Shown here: positions 8,805 through 62,886 of the stretch, piece by piece
Layout of the letters: each line of letters opens with the position of its first letter
How positions within the stretch are numbered: position 1 is the stretch's first letter
Assembly: GCA_964489445.1 (NCBI GenBank)
Contig: CAZAYU010000002.1
Coordinates: 355,900-419,899 of the forward strand
DNA: 64,000 bases
Source of the DNA: an uncultured Planctomycetia bacterium
Lineage (GTDB): Bacteria > Omnitrophota > Gorgyraeia > Duberdicusellales > 4484-171
Reading direction: 5' to 3'
Notes under the pieces: generated by a model
Database searches by the model: none
Told to the model about the DNA's origin: nothing
The model's input: the letters and a program-made list of their open reading frames with translations, nothing else
Position numbers and translations under genes: made by a program

Positions 8805-10223
8805 ATGAAAGTGCTACTTATAAAAACACCATACCTGAATATTTACGGAAGCCTTAAGGATGCAGCCAGGGGTTATTTTCCAATGGGCTTGGGTTACATT
8901 GCCTCTGTTTTAAAAAATTCAGGGTTTGAGGTAATGATGCTTGATCCAGAAGCAAATTTAATGAGTGAAAATGCTATTCGAGCTGTGATAAAAAGTTTTT
9001 CACCAAGTGTCATCGGGATAAGTTGTAGTACGCCAAATATTTACGAGGCCAGGGATTTAGCTAAGATAGTGCGACAAGAGTCTTCTGCAACTATTGTCTT
9101 AGGAGGGGCACATGCTTCAAGCCTTCCTGTACTCACCCTGAAGCAGTTTTCTGATTTTGATCTTGTGGTTTATGGAGAGGGTGAGTTGACCATGCTGGAG
9201 CTCTGTCAAACATTAAAGGCAGGCAAGCAGCAGATGCATAAGATCAAAGGCATAGCCTATAGAGCCAATGGAGGTATTTTAGTTAACGAAGCTAGACCTT
9301 GGATAAGCGATCTGGATCAATTGTCATTTCCGGAGAGAAGTCTTTTGGACATATCCCTTTACAGACCGCAAACCAATATGGAAAGAGGCAAAAAGAGTGC
9401 AGTAATTATTACTTCCAGAGGTTGTCCCTTTAAATGTACGTTTTGCGCTTCATATCATACAGCTGGAAGAATTTTTAGGTCGCATAGCCCACAATATGTA
9501 ATTTCGGAAATGGAATATTTGATTAAAAATTATGGTATAGAATATTTTTTAATCCAGGATGATGAATTTACTATAGATCCTCAGAGGACGAGAAAGATTT
9601 GTCAGATGATTATTGAAAGGAAGCTAAGAATTGAATGGTGGTGTCATTCCAGAGTCGATACAGTTACAGAAGAGCTTTTGTCGTTGATGAGAAAGGCAGG
9701 GTGTGTCCATATTTCTTATGGAGTAGAATCAGGCAATGAAACTATTTTAAAGAGTTACAGAAAAGGAATTAGCTTGGAGCAATCCAGATGTACGCTTAAA
9801 ATTAGTAATCGCCTCGGTCTTAAAACTCATTGCTTTTTTATCTTGGGTCACATAAATGAGACCAAGCAGACAATCAAGGAAACTATAAGGTTTGCTATTG
9901 AGCTTGCGCCCACGATGAGTTCATTTGCCATGCTGGTTCCTTACCCTGGGACAGAAGAATTTGAAAAAGCTAAATTGGACCTCAGAGATATAAATATTTG
10001 GAAAAATTTTGTAACTATTAGCGGAGTACCTATAATTTCTTCTAACGGTCTTTCAAGGAAAATGCTTCAGGCTCATCTTGCTAAGGCGTACATATATTTT
10101 TATCTACGGCCAATTCAATTGATGAGAATATTAAAGAATTTAAGCTCTTTTGAAGAACTTAAGGCTTATATCAGGGGTGGTTTTGCATTACTACATCAAA
10201 TAGTTAATTGGATAAAGGGGTAA
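8805..10223 (+). CDS. Cobalamin-binding (class B) radical SAM enzyme, paralog 1
   Basis: N-terminal B12-binding-like Rossmann region ('MKVLLIKTPY...GLGYIASVLKNSGFEV'). Radical SAM cluster motif 'SRGCPFKCTFCAS' (CX3CX2C). Confidence 0.85.
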   Translation: MKVLLIKTPYLNIYGSLKDAARGYFPMGLGYIASVLKNSGFEVMMLDPEANLMSENAIRAVIKSFSPSVIGISCSTPNIYEARDLAKIVRQESSATIVLGGAHASSLPVLTLKQFSDFDLVVYGEGELTMLELCQTLKAGKQQMHKIKGIAYRANGGILVNEARPWISDLDQLSFPERSLLDISLYRPQTNMERGKKSAVIITSRGCPFKCTFCASYHTAGRIFRSHSPQYVISEMEYLIKNYGIEYFLIQDDEFTIDPQRTRKICQMIIERKLRIEWWCHSRVDTVTEELLSLMRKAGCVHISYGVESGNETILKSYRKGISLEQSRCTLKISNRLGLKTHCFFILGHINETKQTIKETIRFAIELAPTMSSFAMLVPYPGTEEFEKAKLDLRDINIWKNFVTISGVPIISSNGLSRKMLQAHLAKAYIYFYLRPIQLMRILKNLSSFEELKAYIRGGFALLHQIVNWIKG

Positions 10224-11137
10224 TTGTGCAGAATAGTGAGAGATACTTATCGATCAGAGTAGATCTATGTACAATGTCGGATTTTTCAGACGGGCTTTCT
10301 AATATACTGGACATATTGGCGGATTTTGGTATTAAAGCGACTTTTTTTACTGCCATGGGCCCAGATAACCTGGGACAGGTTGGGATAACGAGATTGTTTA
10401 GTAAAAAGTTTATTAAGCAGGTGTATTGTTTGAATCCAATTAAGACCTATGGTTTTGCCAACCTTATGAATGGTTTAATAAAAAAAGGCCCTATTCTAAG
10501 TATCACTTATAGAAATAGACTGGAGAGGATATTGGCAGAGGGGCATGAAATAGGAATCCATGGTTATAACCATGTAAAGTGGTCCAATTATTGCATGAGG
10601 ATGGGGCAGCTTGAAATAAGGGAGGAGATTAACAAAGCGGTCACTATATTTAGGCAGATATTTAGAACTTATCCTTCAGGCTTTGCTGCTCCTTCGTGGG
10701 GATGTAACTTTAATACTTTACGGGTTGAAGACGAATTCAGTTTTTTATATGCCAGTGATACTAGAGGAAGATGCCCATTCTTTCCTAGGATAAATGGTCA
10801 GGTTTTTAAGACACTTCAAATTCCAATTACACTACCCACTTTTTTTGAATTGCTATCAGAAAGACAAGGCGATAAGGATTCAGTGGTTAAAAAGTTAATA
10901 CTTAAAATAATGAATGAAAAATTCAATGCTCTTATTGTTCATCCGTGCCAAGAAGGCAGGGCGAATAAGGAACTTTTCATTAGCTTATTAAATACCCTCA
11001 AGAAAGAGAAAAATACGTATATTACGTATAGCCACTTAGCCAGAATGGTATTAAAGAACAAATCAGAAATTCCTGTATGCGAAGTATGTCCTGCGCAAGT
11101 CTTTGGAGCATTCAGAGAGGTAGGCAGTCAGCTATGA
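10208..11137 (+). CDS. ArnD-like polysaccharide-deacetylase-fold deformylase/deacetylase (4-deoxy-4-formamido-sugar-phosphoundecaprenol deformylase family)
   Basis: Blocks match my recollection of E. coli ArnD. 'IRVDLCT...IKATFFTAMGPDNLGQ' corresponds to 'LRIDVDT...IQASIFFSVGPDNMGR'. 'HEIGIHGYNHVKW' corresponds to 'HEVGLHAWDHHAW'. 'YASDTRGRCPFFP...LQIPITLPTF' corresponds to 'YNSDCRGAMPFRP...AQIPVTLPTW'. The track start at 10208 is TTG. A GTG at 10226 directly after the upstream stop is an alternative start. Confidence 0.75.
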   Translation: MDKGVIVQNSERYLSIRVDLCTMSDFSDGLSNILDILADFGIKATFFTAMGPDNLGQVGITRLFSKKFIKQVYCLNPIKTYGFANLMNGLIKKGPILSITYRNRLERILAEGHEIGIHGYNHVKWSNYCMRMGQLEIREEINKAVTIFRQIFRTYPSGFAAPSWGCNFNTLRVEDEFSFLYASDTRGRCPFFPRINGQVFKTLQIPITLPTFFELLSERQGDKDSVVKKLILKIMNEKFNALIVHPCQEGRANKELFISLLNTLKKEKNTYITYSHLARMVLKNKSEIPVCEVCPAQVFGAFREVGSQL

Positions 11138-11142
11138 AAAAT

Positions 11143-11180
11143 AGATGAATGCTTTGCTTAGCAGTTATATTTTTTATGTA
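11143..11180 (+). terminator. Possible weak rho-independent terminator after the ArnD-like gene
   Basis: A short stem 'gctttgc...agcag' followed by the T-run 'ttatattttttatg'. The stem is imperfect. Confidence 0.25.
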
Positions 11181-11470
11181 TCTGTTTATAAATATTTTGG
11201 TTTTGCATAAGGATGATATTTATCAATTTTTATGATAGCCTTAAATTTGTTGGGGTAGGATAGGAGATGATAAATGATGCATTGGAGTGTAGAGTAGCCA
11301 GTCTTGCTTAAATAGCACTAGAGCATCTTTAGGCTTAATGCGTAGGATGCATTTTTACATTATTTTATGCCGATATATGTTACAATTAATAAAAACGAGG
11401 AGAGGTATACATAACTGAAGTAAATATTAAATAGGTTTTTTAATGTTAGGCTGCCCCGGGGAAACTAAAA

Positions 11471-13075
11471 ATGGAAAATATGTCAAAATTCTTGAATATC
11501 CAATTTATAAATAAGATTAATAAAAGCAATAAAAAGGATTCTTGTAATTGGATTTGGAATTTTAAAGAAAGATGGTACTTAGCTGTGCTATCTGTAGTCT
11601 GGATTTATTCAACATTTTTACATTTTATTTGGCTTAAACTCAATGATGTTCCGCCCTGGGGGGATGCTATTGGTCGGATTCTAAGGAGCATGGATTTATT
11701 TCAAATATGGGAGAAGTCTGGTTTAATCGATTTTATCAAAAGCTTATTTATGTTTAGCTGGGATTATCCGTATCCGCCAATTGTTGAATTTGGGTATCTT
11801 TTTTATTATAAGTTGGCTGGAATAGCTTCAGAAATGGAGCTATTGATGAATTCTCTATATCTAGGGATTGGTATGGCGGGTATTTATGGGATAGGTAAAC
11901 TTTTTTTTAATAAAAATACCGGAATACTTGCTGCTTTGATGTTTAGCTCGTTTCCTGGAATTTTGTTTTATAGTAAAACAGGTTTTAGAGAATTTCAGAT
12001 GGCTTGTTTTCTGGCCTTAACCTTATTGTTTTTGTTTAAGACGGAATGCCTTAGAAATCGAAAATTTTCAATTTTATTTGCTATTTCTTTTGCGTTAACA
12101 ATGTTGATTAAATTAGAAAGCTTAATATTTTTGATATTTCCATTAATTATTGAAGGGGTTAACAGCGTTTTTATAAAAAAAATATTTAAAAGTCGATATT
12201 CGATTGTTAACCTATTGCTAATTCTAATTATTTTTTCTTTTATTTTTTTCCCATGGCATGTTAAGAACTCATTTATTTATTTACAATATTTATTTTCTCT
12301 GCATTTTAATTTATTAGGTAAGTTTTACTGTGTTTTGTTTATTAGTTTATGCGCTTATAGTGTTATTCAATGCTTGAAACGAAAAAGAGAAATAGACGCG
12401 AGGAATGTTGTATGGTTTTTTCTAAATTTTTTATGCCCATTTTTAATTTTTTCTTTTTTATATCCTAAAAATGAGAGCCACATACTTTCATTGCTTGTAT
12501 TTGTTAGTCTTATTATAGCTGGAGGGTGTAATGCTGTAAGGGGCAAGCTTGCAAAATATACTCTTGTTTTGGGAGTAGTTCTTTATTCGTTGCTTTTACC
12601 TTTTGGTTTTTTAGAGGATGTTTCTAGACAAAAAATTGGAAGTTTTGGTAAACAAATATTAAAATTCGTAAATGATGATTACTGTAATGCAAATGTAAAT
12701 TCTTATATTAGTAAAGATATTTTACCTTGTGTTTTTGTAATAATGAATCAAAGTCCGCTTGGGTATTTTCAGATGGAATATTATAAGAAAAAAATGAAGT
12801 TACCTCTTAAACTTATTTTTATCTTACCTGACTGTAAACGCGCTGAAGGATTGTTTTTACAGAATAAAGTTGATTATTTAATTGTAGAGATTCCTCAACT
12901 GACTCACCCAAAAGAAACATTTGAGTTTATTTATAGTGATGGTGATAAATTTAATGAAAACTATTGTTTAATACGTGCGTTTGATTTACCGAACCAGCTT
13001 GAACCAGAAAATAATTTAAAAGTACTAATTTATAAACGGTTAACTAAAAATGTTAAGGTATTAGGTAATGGCTGA
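11471..13075 (+). CDS. GT-C fold membrane glycosyltransferase (ArnT/PMT_2-like), paralog 2
   Basis: 'YPPIVEFGYLFYYKLAGIASEMELLMNSLYLGIGMAGIYGIGKLFFNKNTGILAALMFSSFPG' is near-collinear with the paralog-1 block. A 333-bp AT-rich gap precedes it. Confidence 0.7.
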   Translation: MENMSKFLNIQFINKINKSNKKDSCNWIWNFKERWYLAVLSVVWIYSTFLHFIWLKLNDVPPWGDAIGRILRSMDLFQIWEKSGLIDFIKSLFMFSWDYPYPPIVEFGYLFYYKLAGIASEMELLMNSLYLGIGMAGIYGIGKLFFNKNTGILAALMFSSFPGILFYSKTGFREFQMACFLALTLLFLFKTECLRNRKFSILFAISFALTMLIKLESLIFLIFPLIIEGVNSVFIKKIFKSRYSIVNLLLILIIFSFIFFPWHVKNSFIYLQYLFSLHFNLLGKFYCVLFISLCAYSVIQCLKRKREIDARNVVWFFLNFLCPFLIFSFLYPKNESHILSLLVFVSLIIAGGCNAVRGKLAKYTLVLGVVLYSLLLPFGFLEDVSRQKIGSFGKQILKFVNDDYCNANVNSYISKDILPCVFVIMNQSPLGYFQMEYYKKKMKLPLKLIFILPDCKRAEGLFLQNKVDYLIVEIPQLTHPKETFEFIYSDGDKFNENYCLIRAFDLPNQLEPENNLKVLIYKRLTKNVKVLGNG

Positions 13076-14809: not shown

Positions 14810-15838
14810 ATGGTTAATATCGGAATAATCGGAGTAGGATATTGGGGCATCAACCTGGTGAGGAATTTTTATCAATGTAAAGGGGTTAGAGTCCATTCCG
14901 TGTGCGATAGCGATTTAAAAAGAAAAGATTATATATGTAAGACTTATGGGAGAGATATTGGATTTACTGTAAATTATGAAGATTTGTTAAAGAATGATGA
15001 TATTGATGCGATAGTTATAGCTACTCCTGCGATTACACATTATAAGATTGCCAAAGATAGCCTTTTGTCTGATAAGCATGTATTTGTTGAGAAGCCTTTA
15101 GCGATGAATATCTTAGAGTCTAAAGAGCTGATTGATGTTTCAGAGGAAAGAAAAACTGTGCTTATGGTGGGGCATACATTTTTATATAACGCAGCAGTTA
15201 AGAAACTTAAGGAATATGTGAATGGGAACGAATTTGGCCAGATATACTATATTTATTCTCAGAGATTAAATTTTGGAATAGTGCGTCAAGATATTAATGC
15301 TATGTGGAACTTTGCTCCTCACGATATATCTATAGTCCTATATTTGATGGGCATGGATCCAATAAGAGTTAGTGCAAGGGGGTTATCGTATTTGCAAAAA
15401 GATATCCAAGATGTGGTTTTTTTAAATCTCGATTTTTCCAACAAAGTGAGTGCTTATATACATGTCAGTTGGCTAGATTATAATAAGGTCAGAAAGATGA
15501 CGATTGTGGGTAACAAAAAGATGGCTGTTTATGATGATGCAGATCCTGTTGCAAAAATAAAAATTTATAATCAAGGAAATCTAAGAAATGATGGTTCAAT
15601 ATCATTTGATAAATCTAAAGATTTGGGGGGGTCTCAGCCTGCTCGAAGGCTCAGTGATTTATTCATACCTGAAATTGAATATGCGGAACCTTTAAAGGTA
15701 GAATGTTCTCATTTTATCGAATCTATAACGAAGACAAGAAAGCCTCTTTCAGATGGCTTGAATGGACTTCAAGTAGTGAGAGTATTGGCTGCAGCGCAGA
15801 GATCTTTAGCTAATGGGGGAATAGCCGTTGATTTATAA
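14810..15838 (+). CDS. Gfo/Idh/MocA-family NAD-dependent oxidoreductase (UDP-sugar 3-dehydrogenase, WbpB/GnnA-like)
   Basis: N-terminal Rossmann 'IGIIGVGYWGINLVRNF'. Family-typical 'FVEKPLA' and 'GHTFLYN' blocks. Confidence 0.8.
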   Translation: MVNIGIIGVGYWGINLVRNFYQCKGVRVHSVCDSDLKRKDYICKTYGRDIGFTVNYEDLLKNDDIDAIVIATPAITHYKIAKDSLLSDKHVFVEKPLAMNILESKELIDVSEERKTVLMVGHTFLYNAAVKKLKEYVNGNEFGQIYYIYSQRLNFGIVRQDINAMWNFAPHDISIVLYLMGMDPIRVSARGLSYLQKDIQDVVFLNLDFSNKVSAYIHVSWLDYNKVRKMTIVGNKKMAVYDDADPVAKIKIYNQGNLRNDGSISFDKSKDLGGSQPARRLSDLFIPEIEYAEPLKVECSHFIESITKTRKPLSDGLNGLQVVRVLAAAQRSLANGGIAVDL

Positions 15839-15861
15839 AAAATTTTTAAGGGAGATCCAAC

Positions 15862-16464
15862 ATGAATGATAATAAGAATAAAAAAAGAAGCTATTTTGTT
15901 CATAAAAGTTCTTACATTGATGATAATGTAAGAATCGGAAATGGTACCAAGATTTGGCATTTTTGTCATATTCGTGAAGATTCAAGTGTAGGCAAAAACT
16001 GTATTATTGGCCAAAATGTAATGATAGATTCTAATGTGGAAGTTGGAGATGGGTGCAAGCTACAAAATAATGTTTCTATATATAAAGGGGTCATATTAGA
16101 AGAGAATGTTTTTTGTGGGCCGTCTTGCGTGTTTACTAATGTGTATACCCCTCGAGCATTTATTGAAAGAAAGAGTGAATTTTTACCTACCTTAGTTAAA
16201 ACCGGAGCCAGTATTGGAGCGAATGCTACTATTGTCTGCGGAATTAATATTGGCAGGTATGCCTTTATAGGCGCTGGTGCGGTAGTAAAAAGAGATATCC
16301 CTGATTATGGATTAGTTGTAGGGGTTCCTGCGAAGCAGATAGGTTGGGCATGCAAGTGTGGTGTTACTCTTTGCTTTCAAAGAGGTGAAACTAGATGTGG
16401 CTATTGCGGGAGTGAGTATAGATTGGTGAATAGAAGCTTTGAAATTGTAAGAGAGGCGGTGTAA
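15862..16464 (+). CDS. Hexapeptide-repeat (left-handed beta-helix) N-acetyltransferase, WbpD/PglD-like, with a C-terminal four-Cys tail
   Basis: Repeated [LIV]G-x4 hexapeptide turns ('IGNGTKIWHFCHI', 'VGKNCIIGQNVMIDSNVEVGDGCKLQNNV'). The tail 'CKCGVTLCFQRGETRCGYCGSEY' is CxC...CxxC. Confidence 0.75.
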   Translation: MNDNKNKKRSYFVHKSSYIDDNVRIGNGTKIWHFCHIREDSSVGKNCIIGQNVMIDSNVEVGDGCKLQNNVSIYKGVILEENVFCGPSCVFTNVYTPRAFIERKSEFLPTLVKTGASIGANATIVCGINIGRYAFIGAGAVVKRDIPDYGLVVGVPAKQIGWACKCGVTLCFQRGETRCGYCGSEYRLVNRSFEIVREAV

Positions 16465-17606
16465 TGCAAATTTTAATGTTGGATTTAAAAAGGCAGTATG
16501 AATATATGAGAAGAGATATAAATCCAGTCATCAGAAAATGCCTAAAACGCCAACAATGGATACTTGGCCCTGAGGTGAAGAAGTTTGAGGAAAAAATAAG
16601 CGAATATCTTGGAGTAAAGCATTGTCTGGGGGTTTCTTCTGGCACAGACGCCCTTGTTCTTTGTCTAAGAGCATTGGCAATAAAACTGAAAGGTCGGGAG
16701 TATTTTGACAGAGATGACAGAATTATAACTACACCATTTACATTTATAGCTACAGGAGATGCTATTTTACGTGCAGGTGCAACGCCTGTCTTTGTTGATA
16801 TTGATCCAGTAACTTACAATATTAACGTAAATAAAGTGAAAGATTATTTAATTTCGGCTTCGAATGTGGTAGGAATTGTTCCTGTTCACTTTTATGGTCA
16901 AGCTTGCGATATGGATGATATACTACGAATAGCTAAAGAATGCAAGTTGTTCGTAGTGGAAGATGTAGCCCAAGCCTTTGGAGGCAAGTGGAAGGAGAGA
17001 AAATTAGGTTCTATGGGAGATATTAATGCATTTAGTTTCTTTCCTAGCAAAAATCTTGGTGGGTTTGGCGATGGAGGAATGGTAGCCACAAACAATAATG
17101 AGATGGTCCAAATAACAGAGTTGCTAAGAAGACACGGGGGAAAGGATGGACGTAATGCTGAATATATTGGTTACAATGCAAGGCTTGATGCCTTGCAGGC
17201 AGGGGTACTTCTTGCCAAGATGAAATATATAGAGGAATTTAATGATAAAAAAAGAAAGAATGCAGAAATTTACAACGAAGGGTTGAAAGCGATAAAAGGT
17301 ATCATGTTGCCGGCATCTTTGCGGGAGGCACATCATGTTTATCATCAGTATACTATTAGGGTTCTAAATGGCAGAAGAGATGAGCTCCAAAGGTATCTTA
17401 ACGCAAATGGCATAGGCACAAGGGTCTATTATCCTACGCCGTTGCATAAAATGGAAGTTTTTCAAGGTAAGTGTGAAACATTAGAAAGCCTCAAGGAAGC
17501 AGAGAAAGCATCAAGAGAAGTTTTAAGCTTGCCAATAGACCCTTTGTTAACCCAGAAAGAATTAAAGAAAGTAATTAAGTACATAGCAATTAAACTGAAA
17601 ATTTAA
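16464..17606 (+). CDS. DegT/DnrJ/EryC1/StrS-family PLP-dependent sugar aminotransferase (WbpE/ArnB/GnnB-like)
   Basis: 'DINAFSFFPSKNLGGFGDGGMVATNN' block; the PLP-binding Lys lies in 'FFPSKNL'. 380 aa. Start overlaps the previous stop (TAATG). Confidence 0.85.
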   Translation: MQILMLDLKRQYEYMRRDINPVIRKCLKRQQWILGPEVKKFEEKISEYLGVKHCLGVSSGTDALVLCLRALAIKLKGREYFDRDDRIITTPFTFIATGDAILRAGATPVFVDIDPVTYNINVNKVKDYLISASNVVGIVPVHFYGQACDMDDILRIAKECKLFVVEDVAQAFGGKWKERKLGSMGDINAFSFFPSKNLGGFGDGGMVATNNNEMVQITELLRRHGGKDGRNAEYIGYNARLDALQAGVLLAKMKYIEEFNDKKRKNAEIYNEGLKAIKGIMLPASLREAHHVYHQYTIRVLNGRRDELQRYLNANGIGTRVYYPTPLHKMEVFQGKCETLESLKEAEKASREVLSLPIDPLLTQKELKKVIKYIAIKLKI

Positions 17607-20213: not shown

Positions 20214-22550
20214 ATGATAGATAAGTCTAAGAAATATTTTCCAGCGATGCTATTAATTGCAATTATACTATTGCATATAACTTCTAATTATGTTTGGTTA
20301 AAAAAAGATGATACCTACCTTATGCATGATGCGCATCATAATTTTTTGTTTAGCCTGGGTGTGTTTCATCAAATCCAAGAAAGTTTTATTCCTTTTTTAA
20401 GCGATGTGTTTAGTAAAATCATTTATCACCGTTGGCATGGAGTGTTAGTCGGCTACCTTACAGCACCTTTTTATTTTATTTTTGGTGCCGGCCAAGATAT
20501 AGGGGTGATGGTTAGCAGTACTATTTTTTTAAGTATATTAATTCTTTCAGTGTACGGGATTGGAAAACTAATTCATAGTCGGGCCTCCGGATTACTTTCC
20601 GCATTTCTTATAAGTATTTATCCAATGGTTTTTAATCATTTACGTACGTATATGCTGGATTTACCGCTTACCTCAATGGTAAGTCTAAGCGTGTATTTGC
20701 TGTTAAGGACAAAGTTATTTTCTCAAAGGTTATTTTCACTATTTTTTGGAATATCTATGGGGTTGGGGTTGTTAACAAAATTTAATTTTATCGGCTTTAT
20801 AATCGGACCGCTATTATTTATTTTTTACAAAGCATTCAATATTAAACAAAGTAAAATAAATACAGAACGAAAGAAAATTTTTCATTTTTTTATTATTATT
20901 TGCTTGTCGTTTATTCTTGTGCTTCCTTTTTTAAGGATAAAATTCTGGGAAGTTTTTTCACGATTTTATGAATGTTCATGGCTAAATCCGGTATTTAATA
21001 CTTCTTATGATTCGGTTTTTATTCTTTTTGTCCATTGGTTTTTTGGAGGATGGCAGTTTATTGTTTGGTGTTTCCGGGAAATGAAAGATAGCATTCTATC
21101 GCCTTTATTTTTTTTAATTTTTATTATCAGTTTTTTCATGTTCAAACGAAGTCATGCTAAGTATAGATCGGTTTTTTATTTATGGATACTATTTCCGGTA
21201 TTTGTTTTAAGTTTTGTTTTTCATTATCCGGCAATAAATCGTTATCTAATGCCTTGTTTACCGGCAATAGCAATAGTTTCAGCGATAGGATTAATGACTT
21301 TAAAACCTGTTTTTTTGCGCAGAATAATTATTTTCTTGGTAATAAGTTGTGGAGTTGTCCAATATTTTATTATTTCTTATGGTTATCCTGCTTTTTTTAA
21401 TAATTCAGATGCAAGCTTACCAAAAATAGTTTCAAGATTAAAAAATAGTATATCTTACCGTGATGTTCCTATTGATTATCGAAATGGGCTAAATCGAGGC
21501 GCAAAACCGTCATTATCAAAATGGCCTGTTGAAGAAATTTTAAATAAATTATTAATAGAAGCAAGAGGCTGTCCGCAAAAAATAACAGTTTTTTTCATTG
21601 ATCCTGTTCCGGAAATATACGAGCCAATAGAGTATTTATGCTTGGCAAATAATTATCCAATAGAAATTCACGTTAATTCCTTAAGCGAAGAAGAATCCTA
21701 CAGGGATAAAGAAGAAGATTTTGAACCAAAAAATATGCCTGACTATGTATTAATGGTTGATAATCCGGATAGGGCCAATGATTATCTTCCTATTTCTGTG
21801 AAAGAGAGAATTAACAATTCCCGTAAAAATTTCCAAAATATTCAGGACGAATATGCCTTATGCAATGTTTTTAGGTTGTCAGAAGAAAGTAATATTTTAT
21901 TGTTCAGAGATGCCAGTGAGTCCGTGCGTTTAGAAACACCATTAATTACTGCAGTATTTAAGAGAGGGCGTGTAAGGCTATTTTTTAATGATTATCCTGA
22001 CAGTGAACCTTTATTTATCGTTAATTCCTTTGATTTTGAGGGAGAAAAATATTTGTCAACAGAGATGGAATGGGAGATTAATAAAAGTAGCAAGAAAACA
22101 ATCATGGCTCTTGGTAAGTTGAAAAATTCAGCATTAAGGCAAACATGGAGTTTCTCTGTAAATGAGAATCAAGAAGGAGAATTTAACGCTATTGTTAGCG
22201 CAGAAGAAGAAATAAAAGATAGCATCTTTTCGATTGAAATTCCTAGTTATTATCAGGAATGGGAAACGTCTTTAGAACGAGGTGAGTTTGGTAAAAAGAC
22301 TATATTAAGATATTGCTTCAGGGAATTGTTGTCACCGGTAGACTGTATAACTTTTTGTAAGTTAAGAAGAAGGAATGTGCCCCGCTTTACTTTATTGCCA
22401 AGTTCGGGAGAATGTGATATTAGCTCGTTATTAGCTTATAAAAAAGATCGGCGTATCGTTCAATTTAGGTTGAGCGAGCAAAAGAATAATCAGTATTCTT
22501 TGGATAAAAGTTTAATGAATTCATTTACTCTAAAAATTAAATTCGATTAA
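20214..22550 (+). CDS. GT-C fold membrane glycosyltransferase (ArnT/PMT_2-like), paralog 3, with a long C-terminal soluble domain
   Basis: The block 'YLTAPFYFIFGAGQDIGVMVSSTIFLSILILSVYGIGKLIHSRASGLLSAFLISIYP' is collinear with paralogs 1 and 2. 778 aa. About 12 TM helices, then a roughly 350-aa hydrophilic domain. Confidence 0.65.
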   Translation: MIDKSKKYFPAMLLIAIILLHITSNYVWLKKDDTYLMHDAHHNFLFSLGVFHQIQESFIPFLSDVFSKIIYHRWHGVLVGYLTAPFYFIFGAGQDIGVMVSSTIFLSILILSVYGIGKLIHSRASGLLSAFLISIYPMVFNHLRTYMLDLPLTSMVSLSVYLLLRTKLFSQRLFSLFFGISMGLGLLTKFNFIGFIIGPLLFIFYKAFNIKQSKINTERKKIFHFFIIICLSFILVLPFLRIKFWEVFSRFYECSWLNPVFNTSYDSVFILFVHWFFGGWQFIVWCFREMKDSILSPLFFLIFIISFFMFKRSHAKYRSVFYLWILFPVFVLSFVFHYPAINRYLMPCLPAIAIVSAIGLMTLKPVFLRRIIIFLVISCGVVQYFIISYGYPAFFNNSDASLPKIVSRLKNSISYRDVPIDYRNGLNRGAKPSLSKWPVEEILNKLLIEARGCPQKITVFFIDPVPEIYEPIEYLCLANNYPIEIHVNSLSEEESYRDKEEDFEPKNMPDYVLMVDNPDRANDYLPISVKERINNSRKNFQNIQDEYALCNVFRLSEESNILLFRDASESVRLETPLITAVFKRGRVRLFFNDYPDSEPLFIVNSFDFEGEKYLSTEMEWEINKSSKKTIMALGKLKNSALRQTWSFSVNENQEGEFNAIVSAEEEIKDSIFSIEIPSYYQEWETSLERGEFGKKTILRYCFRELLSPVDCITFCKLRRRNVPRFTLLPSSGECDISSLLAYKKDRRIVQFRLSEQKNNQYSLDKSLMNSFTLKIKFD

Positions 22551-50076: not shown

Positions 50077-50164
50077 TTTTCTAGAGGGCGGAATAGATAG
50101 GTAAGATATATTGCGTAATGTGCCGTATTATGTAAGCGTAATGATTATTAAGAAGGAGGTGAAT

Positions 50165-50418: not shown

Positions 50419-52857
50419 ATGTTTAATATAAGAATTAATAATGTTACATATGATTTTTCGCGGGAGAAAAATGTTATGATGGCTTTGCGTTTCAAAGGGG
50501 CAAGGCAGCAATGTTTATTTAAGTATGCACGAAATATAAGAGATAAAGTTTTCTCTAAACAGGTCGAAATAAGGAGTGTTATCGAGTATTCTAATGTTTG
50601 TCAGCAGGCATGTAATTATTGCGGAATGAGCAAAGCGTCAATGGTAACTCGTTACATATTAAAAAGAAATCAGCTAATATCTCGTGTTAATAAGTTATAT
50701 GATTGTGGACGTAGAATTATAATATTACAGGCGGGTGAGTGCAATAATGATAATTATTTAGATAATTTGTTTGGCCTAATTAAGATGTTAAAAAATGAAT
50801 ATCCTTATTTAGTCATAGTGGGTAGTTTTGGTAATTTATCGCGAGATAATTATAAAAGATTGAGGGATATTGGGGTCGATAGGTATTTACTTAAATTTGA
50901 AACATCAGATGCTAAGCTATACAGAAGAATTAAGCCTACCGATTGTCTTAAAAAAAGACTAGATTGCATTACATTTTTAAAGAAAATAGGTTTTTATGTC
51001 AGCTCTGGCAATATAACTGGGATACCGCAACAATCTCTTAGTAGTTTAGCTGATGATATTTTTTTACTTAAAAAATTAGATATTTGCATGGGTAGCACAT
51101 CACCTTTTATTCCTAACGAGGTTTCTAATTATAGAGATTGTTTTCCGGGAGATATTAATCTTACGCTTAATTTTATAGCAATCCTAAGGATACTCTGTCC
51201 GACTATGTTAATACCTGCTACAAGTTCTTTGGAATTGATTATAAAGGGAGGCCAGTATCTGGGGCTGATGGCAGGAGCAAATGTGCTTACTTTGCATGAT
51301 GGAACTCCCGCAAATAAAGAAAAAATGTTTTTGTTGTATAAAAAGAATCGGTACAAGCCTAAGGGAATTCTATTTAATATTGTTCAAAGAGCAGGCCTGA
51401 AGCCAAGCTTATTTTCTCTTGTTAAGAATAAAGCAGAAAACTCTCTTTTTTATAAACTCGTTAGCCAGAATGTCAATCGTAAGAGTTCTTATATTTATTC
51501 CGATAGCAGTAGGTATACATACGAGGAAGTGCTATTATTGACTTCGAAATGCTGTTCGTTCTTGCAAGGCAATAATATTAAGGAGAGGGATGTAGTAATG
51601 TTAGCTTTATTTGATTCAATAGAATTCATTATTGTTTGCCTAGCTTGCATAAGACTAGGCATAATTGTTGCACCGATAGATCCGCTATCAACTGTAGACG
51701 AGCTAAGGTTTTTAATCTCTGATTGTGTACCCAAAATTATATTAGCAACAGATAGTATTGCTAAGAAATTAAGATACAAGAATGTTATGAAAATAACCAA
51801 CGATAATTGCCCTAAATATTTTTTTTCGTTGCTCTGCAGGAGAAAAAAAAGTATTTTTTTAGCTGCTGTTGATAAAAATAATCCGGCTATTATTTTGTAT
51901 ACTTCTGGGACTACAGGCAAGGCCAAAGGTGTAGTCCACAGCTATAATGATCTACTTACTATGAATTTTCCACATAAGATATTGAGGGTATGCAAAAAAG
52001 ATATTTTCTTTTCTTATTCTAGGATTTATACTAGTTTTGGTTTTGGTAATAGTTTACTTTTTCCGTTATATTGTGGTGCGTCTGTAATTTTATCCAGAAA
52101 TATCCCAAATCCGGTTGCATTGTCTGATGTGTTATTGTATAATCCTACATTATTTTTTGCGGTTCCCGGCGTGTATAAGCTATTGTTAAGAAGTAGAAAA
52201 CTAATAAAACATAATTTTAGTTGTGTTCGTCAATTTATTTCTTCTGGTGAGAGTCTCGGTGAGGATATTTTTAAGCAATGGGAAAAAGTTTATGGCTTTA
52301 GGTTATTGGATTGTTTTGGAACATCTGAGATGTGCCATCCGTTTATTTCGAATATTCCGGGAGAGGAAAAATCTGGGACTTGCGGAAAAACGGTAGAAGG
52401 ATTTCAGGTAAAGTTTGATAAAAAAGGTAAAATGTTTTACAAGGGGCCTTCCTTGTTTTCTGGATATTATAGAAGGAATAAATTTGTAAAAGAAACAATG
52501 GTGGTTGATGGATGGTTTGAATCAAATGATATTGGACGCGTAGATAAAAATGGCAGTATAGTTTTAAAAGGCAGAGACAATCTAATATTTAAGATTAATG
52601 GTAAGTGGATTTCAGCCTTAAATATAGAGGATAAAATAAATCGATTGGAGTTAATAAAGGAAAGCGCTGCTATAAAGAAAGCAGACGGTTTATATCTGTA
52701 TGTTTCTTTAAATTTAAAGGAAATAAAACCTGTTGAGGCTATAAGCTTAGTAAGAAGTTATTGTGTAGAAAAATTGAAAATTAACGAATTTCCCGTAAAA
52801 ATAAACTTGTTAGATGAAATACCGAAGACAAGAAGCGGGAAAATTAAAAGACAGTAA
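50419..52857 (+). CDS. Fusion protein: N-terminal HydE/PylB/BioB-like radical SAM domain plus C-terminal adenylation (AMP-binding, acyl-CoA-synthetase/DltA-like) domain
   Basis: Radical SAM: 'IEYSNVCQQACNYCGMS' (CX3CX2C) and 'IIILQAGE', reminiscent of HydE/PylB 'SNYC..NC.YCG...VLQSGE'. Adenylation: 'ILYTSGTTGKAKGVV' (A3), 'GESLG', 'GFRLLDCFGTSE' (A5), 'GWFESNDIGRVDKNGSIVLKGRDNLIFKINGKWI' (A7/A8), 'PKTRSGKIKRQ' (A10). It is a single 812-aa frame. Confidence 0.75.
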   Translation: MFNIRINNVTYDFSREKNVMMALRFKGARQQCLFKYARNIRDKVFSKQVEIRSVIEYSNVCQQACNYCGMSKASMVTRYILKRNQLISRVNKLYDCGRRIIILQAGECNNDNYLDNLFGLIKMLKNEYPYLVIVGSFGNLSRDNYKRLRDIGVDRYLLKFETSDAKLYRRIKPTDCLKKRLDCITFLKKIGFYVSSGNITGIPQQSLSSLADDIFLLKKLDICMGSTSPFIPNEVSNYRDCFPGDINLTLNFIAILRILCPTMLIPATSSLELIIKGGQYLGLMAGANVLTLHDGTPANKEKMFLLYKKNRYKPKGILFNIVQRAGLKPSLFSLVKNKAENSLFYKLVSQNVNRKSSYIYSDSSRYTYEEVLLLTSKCCSFLQGNNIKERDVVMLALFDSIEFIIVCLACIRLGIIVAPIDPLSTVDELRFLISDCVPKIILATDSIAKKLRYKNVMKITNDNCPKYFFSLLCRRKKSIFLAAVDKNNPAIILYTSGTTGKAKGVVHSYNDLLTMNFPHKILRVCKKDIFFSYSRIYTSFGFGNSLLFPLYCGASVILSRNIPNPVALSDVLLYNPTLFFAVPGVYKLLLRSRKLIKHNFSCVRQFISSGESLGEDIFKQWEKVYGFRLLDCFGTSEMCHPFISNIPGEEKSGTCGKTVEGFQVKFDKKGKMFYKGPSLFSGYYRRNKFVKETMVVDGWFESNDIGRVDKNGSIVLKGRDNLIFKINGKWISALNIEDKINRLELIKESAAIKKADGLYLYVSLNLKEIKPVEAISLVRSYCVEKLKINEFPVKINLLDEIPKTRSGKIKRQ

Positions 52858-58873: not shown

Positions 58874-60052
58874 ATGAAGTTAGCATTTATAACTAATGCC
58901 CGTTTGCCTGGAAGAATACCTACTTCATTTACGATTGTGCAAATATGCGAGGCTTTTAAAGAAAGTGGTGATGATGTAGAGTTGATTTGTCCTGTTGTTT
59001 TAGGAGAGGACAAAAATATAAAAGTAGATATTTGGCATTTTTATGGACTTCAGACATACTTCAAGATAAAAAGGATTTTCTTATTAGATCTAGCTACTGT
59101 TGATCGAATACGTAATTTTTTTGGCAGATATATTGCCAATATTTTGCAAGCTATAGTGTATTCTTATTCCCTTAAGCTTTATTTATTGTTTTCTGATATC
59201 GATGTGTTTTATTGCATGCACCCAATAACCATGTTTTCTTTAGCTTTTGTAGGATGGCATAAAAAACGAAAAATTTATTATGAGTCGCATGAATTCCCTG
59301 TGGGGAAGATATTTAGATCGATACATAGATGGTCGTTGAACATGGCAAAAGGTATAATAGTCATCAATGTTGAATTAAAGCGATTATATGTAAGGTTGGG
59401 TATTCCCGAAAATAAAATAATTGTTATTCCTAATGGCGTTAAACAAAAACGACTTAAAATTATAAATAAGATGTCTCAATGCGAAGCGCGAACAAAATTG
59501 AACTTACCATTAAACAGAAAAATAATTGTGTATACCGGTAATCTTTATGGATGGAAAGGAGTTGAAACTTTGGTCGATAGTATTCGATATTTACCAGATT
59601 GCTTGTTGTGTATTGTGGGGGGGGAAGAAAAAGATATAATGAGATTTAGAAATAATGCCGAAAATGGGAATAATAATATTGTATTCGCCGGGTATGCTAT
59701 TCCAGCTGATGTTCAGTTCTATTGTTTAGCGGCGGATGTTTTAGTTTTACCAAATACAGCTAAGGATGAAAAATCAAAATATTATACTTCCCCTAATAAA
59801 ATGTTTGAGTATATGGCCTCTAAACGACCAATTGTTGCGTCAAGATTACCGTCTTTGATGGAGGTCCTTAGTGATGGCGACAATTCTGTACTTGTGGATC
59901 CTGACAGCCCGGAAGCTTTAGCTTTAGGTATAGATAGTGTATTAAAAAATAAGAGATTGTCCGATAAAATAAGTAGTAAAGCATACAAAGATGTTGAAAA
60001 ATATACATGGACGGCTAGGGTGGGAAAAATTAAGGAGTTTATGAAGGCCTAA
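58874..60052 (+). CDS. Glycosyltransferase family GT4
   Basis: C-terminal 'YYTSPNKMFEYMASKRPIVASRLPSLMEVL' (E-x7-E-like). Confidence 0.75.
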   Translation: MKLAFITNARLPGRIPTSFTIVQICEAFKESGDDVELICPVVLGEDKNIKVDIWHFYGLQTYFKIKRIFLLDLATVDRIRNFFGRYIANILQAIVYSYSLKLYLLFSDIDVFYCMHPITMFSLAFVGWHKKRKIYYESHEFPVGKIFRSIHRWSLNMAKGIIVINVELKRLYVRLGIPENKIIVIPNGVKQKRLKIINKMSQCEARTKLNLPLNRKIIVYTGNLYGWKGVETLVDSIRYLPDCLLCIVGGEEKDIMRFRNNAENGNNNIVFAGYAIPADVQFYCLAADVLVLPNTAKDEKSKYYTSPNKMFEYMASKRPIVASRLPSLMEVLSDGDNSVLVDPDSPEALALGIDSVLKNKRLSDKISSKAYKDVEKYTWTARVGKIKEFMKA

Positions 60053-61428
60053 TGGATGATAAACAGTATAAAAAGATTATTATCAGAATAAAAGATTTAG
60101 CCAAGATTAAATTTATCAATGATACTTTAGTGCTGCAGTTGGGAGCAGTTGTAAATATAGTTTTAGGTTTTGCCGCTACCATTGCAATTGTAAGAACATT
60201 GCATATACAAGATTATGGAGTATACGCACTTATTCTTTCTGTTTACGGATGTATAAATTTTTTCGGCAATTTTAGTATAGATAAAGTTACAGTTATAAAA
60301 TTAGCAGAAGCTCGCCTTAAAAAAGATCAGCAGCAAATAAATAATATTTTAGCTGCGTATACAAAATTGGCTTTTATTTTGAGTGTATCTGTTTGTGTTA
60401 TAGGATTCATCTTTTCTCCTTACCTGGCACAGGTTTTATATGGTAGAAAAGATATTGGAGATTTAGCAAGAGTTATTTTTTTGGCTGCTCCTTTTGGTGT
60501 ATTTTATGAATTAATATGTGTTATTTTCCATGGTTTTAGGATGATAAAACACCTTGCAATAGTAGAGAGTATATTCAGAGCGTGTAAAACGCTTTTCATC
60601 TTAATTGTGTTAATTTTAGGATTTGGTCTTTTTGGGATAATAACAGCATTGGCGATAAATAGCTTAATATGTTCTGTGATAGCTATTTTAATATACAAGA
60701 AACTGCAGCTGAAAGAAGAGAAAATGCCACATTTAGGAAAAATCTTAAGAATGGTGCGGGGTGCTTCTGTTGTTAAGTATTTAAAATTTAGCCTATGGAT
60801 GACTTTAGATAAGAGTTTATTCAATTTATATGATATTTTACCTATTATAATTTTAGGCAGGTTTGTTAACTATGCTGAGGTTGGTTATTTTAAAATTGCC
60901 AAGGATTTAATTGCTTATTTTGTTTATCTGTTTTGGCCGATATATCGCGGTTTACTTGTTAAATTTCCATCGGTGCTAGCACAAAAAGGAAAACTTTATG
61001 CATATAATTTTTTTGTTAAAGTTTCTTTATTCTCTGGCATGGTGGCGTCCGGGATTGCATTTGTTTTGTTGTTTGCTGTTCCTTTTATCATTACTTATTC
61101 TTACGGAAATGAATATGCGCCGGCAAATGGCGTAGTCACTGTTTTATTATTTTATCTTATTTTTTCAGGATTTAATGTAGCAATTCCGGCATTGTATGAG
61201 ATATTGCGACAGGTAAAATTACTAGTATATATAAAACTTTTGGCTATAGTTTTTATTTTGCCTTTTGGCTTATTGTTGATAAAGGCGAAAGGGATAGTCG
61301 GAGCAGCGTTATTCTGCAATGGAATGATTTTGGTAGCATCGGTACTTGCTTTTTCTTTTGCAATTTATATATTAAGAAATGTAAAGCAGAGGAATAATTT
61401 TTATGGTTTACTTAGCAGAGACATCTAA
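60052..61428 (+). CDS. Wzx-like oligosaccharide flippase / polysaccharide biosynthesis (MOP) family protein, copy 2
   Basis: 458 aa. 12-14 TM helices. PST-family-like profile. Confidence 0.6.
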   Translation: MDDKQYKKIIIRIKDLAKIKFINDTLVLQLGAVVNIVLGFAATIAIVRTLHIQDYGVYALILSVYGCINFFGNFSIDKVTVIKLAEARLKKDQQQINNILAAYTKLAFILSVSVCVIGFIFSPYLAQVLYGRKDIGDLARVIFLAAPFGVFYELICVIFHGFRMIKHLAIVESIFRACKTLFILIVLILGFGLFGIITALAINSLICSVIAILIYKKLQLKEEKMPHLGKILRMVRGASVVKYLKFSLWMTLDKSLFNLYDILPIIILGRFVNYAEVGYFKIAKDLIAYFVYLFWPIYRGLLVKFPSVLAQKGKLYAYNFFVKVSLFSGMVASGIAFVLLFAVPFIITYSYGNEYAPANGVVTVLLFYLIFSGFNVAIPALYEILRQVKLLVYIKLLAIVFILPFGLLLIKAKGIVGAALFCNGMILVASVLAFSFAIYILRNVKQRNNFYGLLSRDI

Positions 61429-61449
61429 CAATTAATTTTTTATTAACTT

Positions 61450-62886
61450 ATGAGGTACGAAAAAGTTCTTTTAATTTGTCCGCCATCTTTAAGAGGAAAG
61501 ATCCGCTTATCTCATTTTCCTCATGTCGGATTAGGGTATATAGCCGAAGCTCTTATAAAATCTGGTGTCCACGTAAGTGTTCTTGACATGAATGCTGGTT
61601 ATAGGTTCAATGACTTGCAGTACAGGATTAGAGAGTTTAGCCCGACACTTATAGGTTTTACCGGGATGACGTTAGGGTACAATCATTTTTATAGGATGAT
61701 CAATAAAATTAAAAGTTTATATCCGCAGATAAATATTATTGTAGGGGGTGCACATTGTTCTTCTGTCAGAGAACAATTTTTACAAGAATGCCAAGGAGTT
61801 GATTATGGAATTATTTTTGAAGGAGATAAAACTATTGTGCAATTGTGTTGTGGGGAAGAATTGGAAAAAATACAGGGGTTTATCTATCGTATTAATGGGG
61901 AAGTAGTAAGTAACCAGTTTAAGAACTTTATCCGGGATCTTGATTCACTGTCTTTCCCAAGATATGAGTCCTTTGAATTGGGTAAGTATCCATCTAAAAG
62001 TATAGCCATCGTTACCTCGAGAGGTTGTCCTTATGATTGCATCTATTGTTCGGTAGGGGCATCTGCCGGAAAAGAATTTCGCGCGCGAAGCGCTGAAGAT
62101 GTAGTAAATGAAATTGAATATTGGTATAATCGTGGTTATCGCGAAATATTTATTTTAGATGACAATTTTACTTTTGTTCGGAAGAGAGTAGAAAAAATTT
62201 GCGAATTATTGCTTAAAATGGATTTTAAGGGTTTGAGCTTGAAAAACCCTGTTGGCTTAAGAGCTGATAGAGTTGACAGAGAATTATTAAAGAAGTTAAA
62301 ACATGCTGGTTTTGATTTAATTGCCTTTGGGGTGGAATCAGCCAGCAATAGGATTTTAGATAATATAAAAAAAGGAGAAACGATATTTTCCATAGAGCAA
62401 GCTGTAAAAAATGCTTGTGAGCTTGGGTTTGATGTTGACCTTTTTTTTCTTATTGGGTCTCCTGGAGAAACCATGCAAGATTTACAGAAGTCTTTTTTGC
62501 TAGCAAAGAAATATTTAATACGTCGAGCTGATTTTTACAACCTTGTTCCTTTTCCATCCACAGAGTTGCTTGATATGCTGGTAGAGAAGCGATATCTTGT
62601 TTATTCCTTGAACGAAATATTTAATGATATTTCCTATTATCAAAATAAACCTTGTTTTTATACTCCAGAAATGTCAATAATCGAGAGAAGAAAAGCCTTT
62701 AATTTGGGAAAAAAAATATCCATAGAAGTACAGAAGAGGTTCATGGAGGGTAAAATTAGGGCTCCTTTGATTTTAAAAAGAATTATAGTGGCTATTTCTA
62801 CTGCGCCGTTAATAGAGAAGGTGACAGTTAATAGTAGGTGGATGCTTAGACTAAGAAGGTTATTGAAAAGATTCTTATTTAGATAA
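61450..62886 (+). CDS. Cobalamin-binding (class B) radical SAM enzyme, paralog 7
   Basis: 'TSRGCPYDCIYCSVG' (CX3CX2C). N-terminal 'VLLICPPSLRG...GLGYIAEALIKSGV' B12-binding-like region. Confidence 0.8.
   Translation: MRYEKVLLICPPSLRGKIRLSHFPHVGLGYIAEALIKSGVHVSVLDMNAGYRFNDLQYRIREFSPTLIGFTGMTLGYNHFYRMINKIKSLYPQINIIVGGAHCSSVREQFLQECQGVDYGIIFEGDKTIVQLCCGEELEKIQGFIYRINGEVVSNQFKNFIRDLDSLSFPRYESFELGKYPSKSIAIVTSRGCPYDCIYCSVGASAGKEFRARSAEDVVNEIEYWYNRGYREIFILDDNFTFVRKRVEKICELLLKMDFKGLSLKNPVGLRADRVDRELLKKLKHAGFDLIAFGVESASNRILDNIKKGETIFSIEQAVKNACELGFDVDLFFLIGSPGETMQDLQKSFLLAKKYLIRRADFYNLVPFPSTELLDMLVEKRYLVYSLNEIFNDISYYQNKPCFYTPEMSIIERRKAFNLGKKISIEVQKRFMEGKIRAPLILKRIIVAISTAPLIEKVTVNSRWMLRLRRLLKRFLFR

Follow-up and report, generated by a model that had tools for sequence, protein, structure and literature searches.

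Why would a bacterial locus for assembling a surface glycan encode seven radical S-adenosylmethionine (SAM) enzymes of the cobalamin (B12)-binding type, and on what might they act? The question is raised by a stretch of 64,000 nucleotides (the window) of contig CAZAYU010000002.1, from an uncultured anaerobic bacterium of the Omnitrophota, in which an initial annotation had noticed seven such open reading frames (ORFs). Class B radical SAM enzymes perform very hard C-H functionalizations, and a function has been assigned to only a minority of the family. Carbohydrate-acting examples are known from antibiotic clusters, each of which encodes between one and three of these enzymes. With confidence slightly on the favorable side of even, we read the window as the core of an envelope glycoconjugate locus whose B12-type radical SAM enzymes tailor cytoplasmic intermediates; it looks like a locus of the O-antigen, teichoic-acid or S-layer-glycan type. 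The seven ORFs, numbered in genomic order, are the following, each with the first cysteine of its CX3CX2C motif.

8805..10223, plus strand: R1, B12-type radical SAM protein, 472 aa, C207; PF04055 92 bits, PF02310 72 bits
13068..14585, plus strand: R2, B12-type radical SAM protein, 505 aa, C199; PF04055 88 bits, PF02310 50 bits
22580..24055, plus strand: R3, divergent B12-type radical SAM protein, 491 aa, C216; PF04055 45 bits, PF02310 19.7 bits
36624..38066, plus strand: R4, B12-type radical SAM protein, 480 aa, C233; PF04055 and PF02310; opens the R4-R5-methyltransferase module
38079..39563, plus strand: R5, B12-type radical SAM protein, 494 aa, C251; PF04055 and PF02310; tandem partner of R4
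48610..49899, plus strand: R6, B12-type radical SAM protein of family TIGR04072, 429 aa, C189
61450..62886, plus strand: R7, B12-type radical SAM protein, 478 aa, C193; PF04055 92 bits, PF02310 70 bits; directly after the second flippase

The B12-type radical SAM enzymes and their candidate chemistry

All seven ORFs were found on the plus strand as initially annotated, each with a radical SAM core that matched Pfam PF04055 above threshold (45-92 bits) and a single CX3CX2C motif located 190-250 residues into the protein. All seven also have the claimed N-terminal Rossmann domain of the B12-binding type, which in six scored 39-72 bits against PF02310 (gathering score 32.1 bits). R3 fell below this threshold, yet it is a full-length homologue: its alignment with the R1-family profile ran end to end, including the N-terminal domain (hhalign probability 99.9%, 454 columns). 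No transmembrane segment was predicted in R1-R7, and the proteins are therefore assigned to the cytoplasm. Pairwise identities of 21-36%, with the tandem pair R4 and R5 closest at 36%, indicate old, separate lineages of one superfamily and no recent expansion; the term paralogous, used in the initial annotation, is thus apt at the superfamily level and not for a recent family. R1-R7 are probably separate, anciently diverged tailoring enzymes. Their number would be far above chance, since at a generous genomic frequency of 0.5% about 0.2 B12-type genes would be expected among approximately 46. Most of the seven presumably use cobalamin in addition to a 5'-deoxyadenosyl radical.

The relation of R1-R7 to named enzymes was judged from NCBIfam hidden Markov model (HMM) scores and matches in the Protein Data Bank (PDB), used as a proxy for phylogeny. 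A curated NCBIfam cutoff was reached only by R6, which scored 550 bits against TIGR04072 ('lipid biosynthesis B12-binding/radical SAM protein'; cutoff 360) over residues 2-422 of 429; the other six scored 52-141 bits against this model. These six matched BchE or HpnJ best (74-244 bits), below the respective cutoffs of 481 and 578; R1, for example, scored 244 bits with BchE and 207 bits with HpnJ, and R2 reached no NCBIfam cutoff. HpnJ was the first or second NCBIfam match for six of the seven, with scores of 80-207 bits. BchE and HpnJ are non-methylating families. Methylase models (PhpK, HpnR, KedN5, TIGR03975, Mmp10 type, TsrM, TIGR04014 and TIGR04428) scored far below cutoff for all seven proteins, and the AprD4 family model NF033070 gave 47-115 bits over the core only (cutoff 500).

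An AlphaFold2 model of R1, built with 25 homologues, had a mean predicted local distance difference test score of 93. Its best PDB matches by Foldseek (AprD4, TsrM, MgmA, OxsB, CysS and TokK; template-modeling score ~0.7) all have the class B fold, with AprD4 at the top (0.72-0.74). By sequence, AprD4 was the top or second PDB match for R1, R3, R4, R6 and R7, and the nearest solved sequence for R4 and R7 was MgmA (9ccb). GenK, GenD1, Fom3, TokK and CysS share with the window's enzymes an N-terminal cobalamin Rossmann domain followed by a radical SAM TIM barrel, and TokK and CysS are among the structural matches at ~0.7. However, sequence identity was only 16-21% and no family cutoff was reached. 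Those enzymes come from secondary-metabolite clusters that encode between one and three of the kind, in contrast to the envelope glycan locus described here with its seven to nine modules.

C-methylation is one candidate chemistry, next to the contraction or rearrangement of a ring and to dehydration or deoxygenation; it is the most likely one for some of the enzymes and not for all, and methylation by R1-R7 is plausible but unproven. The initial annotation had envisaged a multiply C-methylated product, and none of our tests pointed to one: six of the seven proteins missed every NCBIfam cutoff and lay nearest BchE or HpnJ. That most or all of the seven are cobalamin-dependent C-methyltransferases building a multiply C-methylated glycan is nonetheless a possibility, if a doubtful one. 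C-methyltransferases are the largest characterized group of B12-type radical SAM enzymes, methylation is the commonest class B reaction, and some class B C-methyltransferases use carbohydrate substrates (PMC12931638). In the window, six proteins have a strong PF02310 domain with GGxH and GEGE motifs, R4 and R7 are closest by sequence to the methylase MgmA, and all seven partially match PhpK, ApyD, HpnR and Mmp10-type methylase models. Against this stand the low scores of those same matches, the preference of six proteins for non-methylating families, and the structural likeness of R1 to AprD4, which neither methylates nor binds cobalamin. The low identity among R1-R7 likewise argues for different chemistries rather than seven versions of one, and an ordinary SAM methyltransferase is already encoded at 39529.

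Glycan genes around R1, R2, R3 and R7

The initial annotation placed the seven genes within a one-strand glycan-assembly locus containing GT-C, family 2 (GT2) and family 4 (GT4) glycosyltransferases, flippases and tailoring genes, and this description is borne out by the following features.

3313..8795, plus strand: WecB-type 2-epimerase, ArnC-like GT2, AsnB-type amidotransferase and a 564-aa protein, preceding R1
10208..13075, plus strand: ArnD-like deacetylase (lipid-linked sugar) and GT-C (PMT_2/ArnT-like), between R1 and R2
14810..17606, plus strand: GFO oxidoreductase, hexapeptide acetyltransferase and DegT aminotransferase; a WbpB/D/E-like triad
20214..30793: assembly block around R3, comprising a 778-aa GT-C, a GT4, two GT2 genes, a Wzx-type flippase, a minus-strand GT2 and a GT4
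28531-29409, minus strand: that GT2, the sole minus-strand gene within the assembly block, the rest of the locus being co-directional over 64 kb
58874..61428, plus strand: GT4 and second Wzx-type flippase, preceding R7

Two of the sugar genes upstream of R1 passed curated cutoffs: the WecB-type epimerase (TIGR00236, 256 bits; cutoff 210) and AsnB (TIGR01536, 461 bits; cutoff 267). The best NCBIfam match of the GT2 at 4361 was ArnC (82 bits). The deacetylase at 10208 (PF01522) matched the ArnD model NF011923 over positions 4-285 of 294 with 153 bits (E 8e-45), which does not reach the cutoff of 382. The GT-C at 11471-13075 belongs to PF13231 (PMT_2) and has eight predicted transmembrane segments. 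These genes are tightly coupled to the radical SAM genes: R1 shares 16 nt with the start of the ArnD-like gene, R2 shares its first 8 nt with the end of the GT-C gene, and R3 starts 30 nt after the gene for the 778-aa GT-C. As judged from the gene families, GT2, deacetylase and GT-C form the layout of a pathway in which a polyprenyl-phosphate monosaccharide donor would be built, trimmed and transferred outside the membrane. The triad downstream of R2 presumably corresponds to WbpB, WbpD and WbpE of the Pseudomonas aeruginosa UDP-ManNAc3NAcA pathway. This analogy suggests that its product may be a 2,3-diacetamido uronic acid sugar; several WecB homologues are annotated by JGI as 'UDP-GlcNAc3NAcA epimerase'. 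The homologues of the WecB-type epimerase are spread over mixed phyla, with identities of at most 61%.

The 564-aa protein (7101-8795) is soluble and had no Pfam or NCBIfam match in our scans and no PDB sequence match. The precomputed annotation of an identical protein lists PF25840 (Ulvan_lyase_N).

Two known systems resemble this arrangement. In the Arn pathway (ArnC, ArnD and ArnT), as in mycobacterial PpgS with its GT-C, a GT2 makes a polyprenyl-phosphate sugar that passes a deformylase or deacetylase before a GT-C transfers it outside. The GT2 at 4361 and the deacetylase resemble ArnC and ArnD best, although under their equivalog cutoffs. The sugar here would differ from the 4-amino-4-deoxyarabinose of the Arn pathway, with the WecB epimerase and the AsnB amidotransferase in place of ArnA and ArnB. 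To our knowledge, no radical SAM enzyme takes part in the Arn pathway. The second system is HpnI-HpnK-HpnJ, which produces the cyclitol ether of the hopanoid bacteriohopanetetrol. There a GT2 places an N-acetyl amino sugar on the lipid, the sugar is deacetylated by a second enzyme, and its rearrangement is the work of a B12-type radical SAM enzyme; the same three activities occur in the block containing the GT2 at 4361, R1 and the ArnD-like gene. HpnI, HpnK and HpnJ are the closest functional precedent for R1 and R2, although the ring contraction by HpnJ is itself still only proposed (PMC13459092). Unlike that pathway, the window lacks hopanoid genes, its deacetylase is ArnD-like and the lipid is presumably polyprenyl phosphate.

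We propose the following route as a working model. The ArnC-like GT2 would make a polyprenyl-phosphate-linked amino sugar and the ArnD-like enzyme would deacetylate it. This lipid-linked sugar would be the most likely substrate of R1 and R2, each of R1-R7 being envisaged as modifying unactivated carbons of cytoplasmic intermediates by way of a 5'-deoxyadenosyl radical. The modified sugar would then be flipped and transferred by the adjacent GT-C, following the logic of HpnI-HpnK-HpnJ.

Gene order in other genomes was compared with that of the window. In the contig holding the R1 orthologue of 69% identity (L006), the genes for epimerase, GT2, AsnB, an extra B12-type radical SAM protein, the 564-aa protein, R1, deacetylase and R2 follow one another at 61-73% identity. 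The R2 orthologue (68%) lies directly after the deacetylase gene, and two further B12-type radical SAM genes are nearby. R2 is followed by a GFO-family oxidoreductase gene in both loci. As a separate observation, the gene for the 564-aa protein is kept immediately 5' of R1 in this relative. R1 homologues at 47-49% identity, from a hot-spring contig and an Omnitrophota metagenome-assembled genome (MAG), lie among GT2, GT4, PMT_2 and AsnB genes and more B12-type radical SAM genes. In an Elusimicrobia MAG (L015), an R7 homologue (53%) adjoins an R1 homologue and GT2 genes. The R1-R2 block, like the R4-R5 block described below, thus stays syntenic in relatives; scattering, which would have spoken against the initial annotation, was not seen for these two blocks.

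More distant R1 relatives (33-47% identity) were sought in species-representative genomes; those among the matches listed come from Omnitrophota, Elusimicrobia, Nitrospirota, WOR-1, candidate phyla radiation (CPR) bacteria, Bathyarchaeia, Methanobacteriaceae and others. The 47 listed loci of at least 15 kb around R1 homologues formed the comparison set. At least two B12-type radical SAM genes were present in 23 of them, and 24 of the 47 contained at least one glycan gene like those of the window (a raw count). The maximum was seven or eight B12-type ORFs within 21 kb, some of which are possibly split ORFs.

Two of these loci are denser than the window, with eight B12-type ORFs in a Nealsonbacteria MAG (L057) and seven in a Bathyarchaeota MAG (L041), each within ~18-21 kb. 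BLAST detected none of the window's glycan genes in L057, and some of the matches in L041 look like split ORFs.

Full-text literature searches found no characterized glycan pathway with multiple B12-type radical SAM enzymes. Searches on TIGR04072, and on B12-type radical SAM enzymes in O-antigen, polysaccharide and Omnitrophota contexts, likewise found no characterized precedent. The initial statement that no characterized pathway is so arranged is in keeping with these searches, but the arrangement is not peculiar to this genome: it recurs with two to eight B12-type genes, often beside GT2 or GT4 genes, in many uncultured lineages. These enzymes add new members to a superfamily already known, and the locus type, an envelope glycan locus with a radical SAM tailoring array, is recurrent but unstudied in uncultured anaerobes.

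Several results weigh against a glycan locus tailored by cobalamin-dependent enzymes. Six of the seven proteins reached no curated family cutoff. Among window ORFs of at least 150 aa, neither an initiating phosphoglycosyltransferase nor a Wzy polymerase was recognized, and an Rfam scan of the window at gathering thresholds, gaps between genes included, found no cobalamin riboswitch or other RNA element. The ArnD-like neighbor of R1 is retained in close relatives only. When adjacency was examined in 83 other loci, 5 of 157 B12-type radical SAM genes had a polytopic membrane neighbor, compared to a per-gene background of 4.6%; pairing of GT-C and B12-type radical SAM genes is consequently not general, and we rejected it as a rule. 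In the Rossmann domain of R3 the glycine motifs are lost, GGxH having become TGSY and GEGE having become RGEPE. Among the structural matches of R1, AprD4 comes first. Finally, a PF02310 match is no proof of cobalamin use, since Rossmann-like domains occur in AprD4 and ArsL, neither of which binds cobalamin (PMC12931638).

The last three points bear on an alternative that we consider unlikely, in which cobalamin binding was lost in several of the seven, and these act as AprD4-like radical dehydratases or epimerases that make deoxy or epimerized sugars. The substrate of AprD4, in the apramycin pathway, is an amino sugar. AprD4 is a sugar 1,2-diol dehydratase that works without cobalamin (PMC12931638). 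Its rank of first or second among the PDB sequences matched by R1, R3, R4, R6 and R7, the degenerate domain of R3, and the GFO oxidoreductase gene after R2, which would fit a dehydratase-plus-reductase pair, are all consistent with such an assignment. However, the sequence likeness is restricted to the radical SAM core (for example, residues 163-387 of R1), the AprD4 model scores are a fraction of the cutoff, R1, R2, R4, R5, R6 and R7 have clear PF02310 domains, and the GFO gene is also explicable as a member of the WbpB/D/E-like triad.

Modules around R4-R5 and R6

In our preferred reading of the window as an envelope glycoconjugate locus, the remaining radical SAM enzymes would supply substituents. 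The features concerned are listed below.

33818..36456, plus strand: ABC importer (permease, ATPase, NMT1/SsuA/PhnD-like binding protein), directly upstream of R4
39529..40305, plus strand: class I SAM methyltransferase (PF08241, PF13649), third gene of the R4-R5 module
30960-33002, 40404-42344, 52975-54402, 56193-57446 and 57495-58853: five sulfatase-fold proteins
42425..48332, plus strand: first acylation module (candidate carrier protein CP1, FkbH-domain loader, DltB-like membrane-bound O-acyltransferase (MBOAT), 424-aa protein, second DltB-like MBOAT)
50162..50416, plus strand: carrier protein CP2, 83 aa, PP-binding (PF00550 called in identical contigs), between R6 and R8
50419..52857, plus strand: R8, eighth radical SAM protein, 812 aa, CX3CX2C at C61; PF04055 and PF00501, B12 domain absent

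The unit of R4, R5 and the methyltransferase is kept in four other contigs (L101-L104) at 70-76% identity, the range for the conserved module overall being 64-76%. Two of these retain the ABC binding protein and a sulfatase-fold neighbor beside the module, with the upstream position kept in L102; in the two others the module adjoins sulfotransferase genes and an adenosine phosphosulfate (APS)-kinase fusion. These neighbors hint at a link to sulfur or sulfonate chemistry. R4, R5 and the methyltransferase would form a mobile three-gene module that makes or modifies a small substituent, possibly sulfur-linked. In a more distant relative (L103, 3394-12194), two methyltransferase genes flank R4-R5, and the neighbors include two sulfotransferases, an amidinotransferase/DDAH-like protein and an APS-kinase/cytidylyltransferase fusion. 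The binding protein of the importer that precedes R4-R5 in the window is SsuA/TauA/PhnD-like.

An N-terminal signal or anchor was found in all five sulfatase-fold proteins, and the C/S-x-P-x-R formylglycine motif was absent from each. The protein at 40404..42344, on the plus strand, matches PF00884 and PF01663 of the alkaline-phosphatase superfamily. The five are probably not sulfatases; a place in that superfamily as secreted enzymes of the phosphodiesterase or phosphotransferase type fits them better, and they may form or cleave phosphodiesters on the polymer. The absence of the motif in all five also led us to reject the idea that the radical SAM/SPASM proteins encoded upstream of the window are anaerobic sulfatase maturases.

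The acylation modules, which the initial annotation had overlooked along with R8, lie on either side of R6. The FkbH-domain protein passed its cutoff (TIGR01686, 251 bits; cutoff 147), and both MBOATs matched the DltB model with 159 bits, below the cutoff of 375. CP2 had acyl carrier protein (ACP) and DltC-type NCBIfam matches, all under cutoff. CP1 (98 aa) had no NCBIfam match, and its size and its position ahead of FkbH point to a putative carrier role. The 424-aa protein has a single transmembrane segment and no family match or PDB sequence match; its position and topology suggest that it may be DltD-like. The N-terminal domain of R8 is HydE/PylB-like (HydE structures, E 4e-51; HydE model, 220 bits, cutoff 255) and its C-terminal domain resembles benzoate- and anthranilate-CoA-ligase adenylation domains (aryl-CoA ligases, E 4e-44). 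The full-length architecture of R8 is rare: of 1.84 billion representative proteins, a single further cluster at 50% identity shares it (P0375, 813 aa, 48% identity).

An adenylating domain, CP2 and two DltB-like MBOATs are encoded together, so a set of the Dlt type is present: the R8 C-terminus, CP2, the two MBOATs and the 424-aa protein parallel the adenylating enzyme, small carrier, DltB-like MBOAT and single-pass partner of DltABCD. The module is a Dlt analogue rather than Dlt itself, because the DltB and DltC equivalog cutoffs were not reached; in addition, its adenylation domain resembles aryl/acyl-CoA ligases rather than DltA and forms one protein with a radical SAM domain, and the second module uses FkbH. 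Two candidate carriers and two MBOATs suggest two parallel Dlt-like acylation routes. R6, CP2 and R8 would probably make an unusual carrier-bound acyl group, which the MBOATs would pass to the polymer in the manner of Dlt, and the candidate carrier CP1, loaded by FkbH, would work in parallel.

R6 itself comes from a family with other associations. It is 64% identical, without gaps, to the canonical TIGR04072 protein of Ca. Aceula meridiana (Omnitrophota), ending ~28 aa earlier, and its nearest named relatives (64-65%) are Omnitrophota. Its homologues P0169, P0142 and P0137 (55-68%) all lie within aryl polyene (APE)/ladderane-like lipid clusters with ketosynthase, ACP, LolA, MMPL, ApeI/ApeP and LpxL-like genes, and its identity to proteins from such clusters is also given as 64-69%. 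This context is missing around R6; only an ACP and an AMP-ligase domain remain of that set, and R6 is paired with a carrier, the HydE-like/adenylase fusion and the MBOATs. Since its homologues sit in lipid clusters, R6 looks like a copy recruited into a glycan locus. To count all seven as glycan enzymes, as in the initial annotation, was therefore an overstatement, as the R6 family is named for lipid biosynthesis.

The same evidence could be extended to the whole array, such that the radical SAM enzymes tailor lipids, the product is a glycolipid or lipoglycan with modified acyl or alkyl chains, and the glycan genes are mere neighbors in an envelope super-locus. We regard this as improbable. 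R6 is a true TIGR04072 member, the window holds a confirmed carrier (CP2) as well as the candidate CP1, FkbH, an adenylating enzyme and two MBOATs, and HpnJ, HpnP, HpnR and Tes are lipid-modifying radical SAM enzymes (PMC13459092). However, ketosynthase, LolA, MMPL, thioesterase and other lipid-cluster genes such as ApeI/ApeP are absent from the window, the coupled partners of R1, R2, R3 and R7 are genes for GT-C enzymes, a deacetylase or a flippase and not acyl-handling genes, and R1 homologues elsewhere accompany GT2, GT4 and AsnB.

Extent of the locus and its significance

The window has a G+C content of 33% and a strongly positive GC skew throughout. Only 2 of its 46 ORFs of at least 150 aa are on the minus strand, setting aside one spurious short ORF (56651-57124) nested within a sulfatase-fold gene. 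By family assignment, the window encodes four GT4, four GT2 and three GT-C/PMT_2 glycosyltransferases, together with two Wzx-type flippases, two GDSL esterases, the ABC importer and tailoring genes. Flanking sequence was read from contigs of identical sequence, with these additional features at the edges.

L091 1-9854, directly upstream of window position 1: TagH/Wzt-like ABC ATPase that carries a long extension at its C terminus
L091 1-9854, upstream: 1288-aa protein with two tandem B12-type radical SAM modules (HpnJ model, 341 bits)
L091 1-9854, upstream: three consecutive radical SAM/SPASM proteins
62930-63856, minus strand: last ORF of the window; the called gene has another start

On the downstream side, a further radical SAM gene accompanies GT4, GT-C and GT2 genes, and unrelated genes follow. 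The locus thus extends past both ends of the window, to at least 80 kb in total. With the flanks added to the window set, the count of radical SAM domains rises to at least 14 in ~85 kb, of which nine are B12-type. The initial count of seven is accurate for B12-type enzymes in the window but falls short for radical SAM enzymes overall, as R8 and the flanking genes had been missed.

Two of the flanking products were also noted for other features: the 1288-aa tandem protein begins with a region of ~300 aa that has no reported family match, and the SPASM proteins match a tungsten-cofactor maturase model best, far below cutoff. Within the window, the two largest intergenic gaps, 17606-18268 (0.66 kb) and 19323-20214 (0.89 kb), flank a GDSL gene and may be operon boundaries; the second contains an 81-aa ORF (19461-19706) with one hydrophobic segment.

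That the locus instead modifies a protein or peptide, with PMT_2 GT-C enzymes O-glycosylating a secreted or S-layer protein and the B12-type and SPASM radical SAM enzymes acting on a peptide as in pathways for RiPPs (post-translationally modified peptides made by ribosomes), is very unlikely: the protein-mannosyltransferase-like PMT_2 family, the partial matches to the RiPP methylase models ApyD and TIGR03975 and the three SPASM proteins just upstream would fit, but PMT_2 also includes ArnT-type lipid and glycan transferases, the RiPP models scored well under cutoff, the upstream ABC ATPase is of a polysaccharide exporter type, and neither a precursor-peptide gene nor a leader peptidase or RiPP recognition element was observed.

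Extending the envelope-glycan reading beyond this genome, we suggest, tentatively and with considerable doubt, that uncharacterized envelope-glycan pathways of this kind are widespread in Omnitrophota, Elusimicrobia, CPR bacteria and Bathyarchaeia. In such pathways, arrays of diverged B12-type radical SAM enzymes might subject lipid-linked sugars to several different radical reactions (C-methylation, the contraction of rings to carbocycles and the formation of C-C bonds), and in the present locus MBOATs might in addition export a radical SAM-made acyl group onto the polymer. The resulting surface polymer chemistry would then have no known counterpart.

The locus offers three test cases: R1 with the ArnC-like GT2 and the ArnD-like deacetylase, the R4-R5-methyltransferase module, and R6, CP2 and R8 feeding the MBOATs. 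If our reading is correct, the primary envelope chemistry of uncultured anaerobes would use radical, cobalamin-dependent steps at a new scale. Many MAG genes annotated as 'Fe-S oxidoreductase / BchE-like' could then be linked to a definite class of substrates. Construction of the cell surface would also require much cobalamin, which would be relevant to the ecology of host-dependent or syntrophic lineages.

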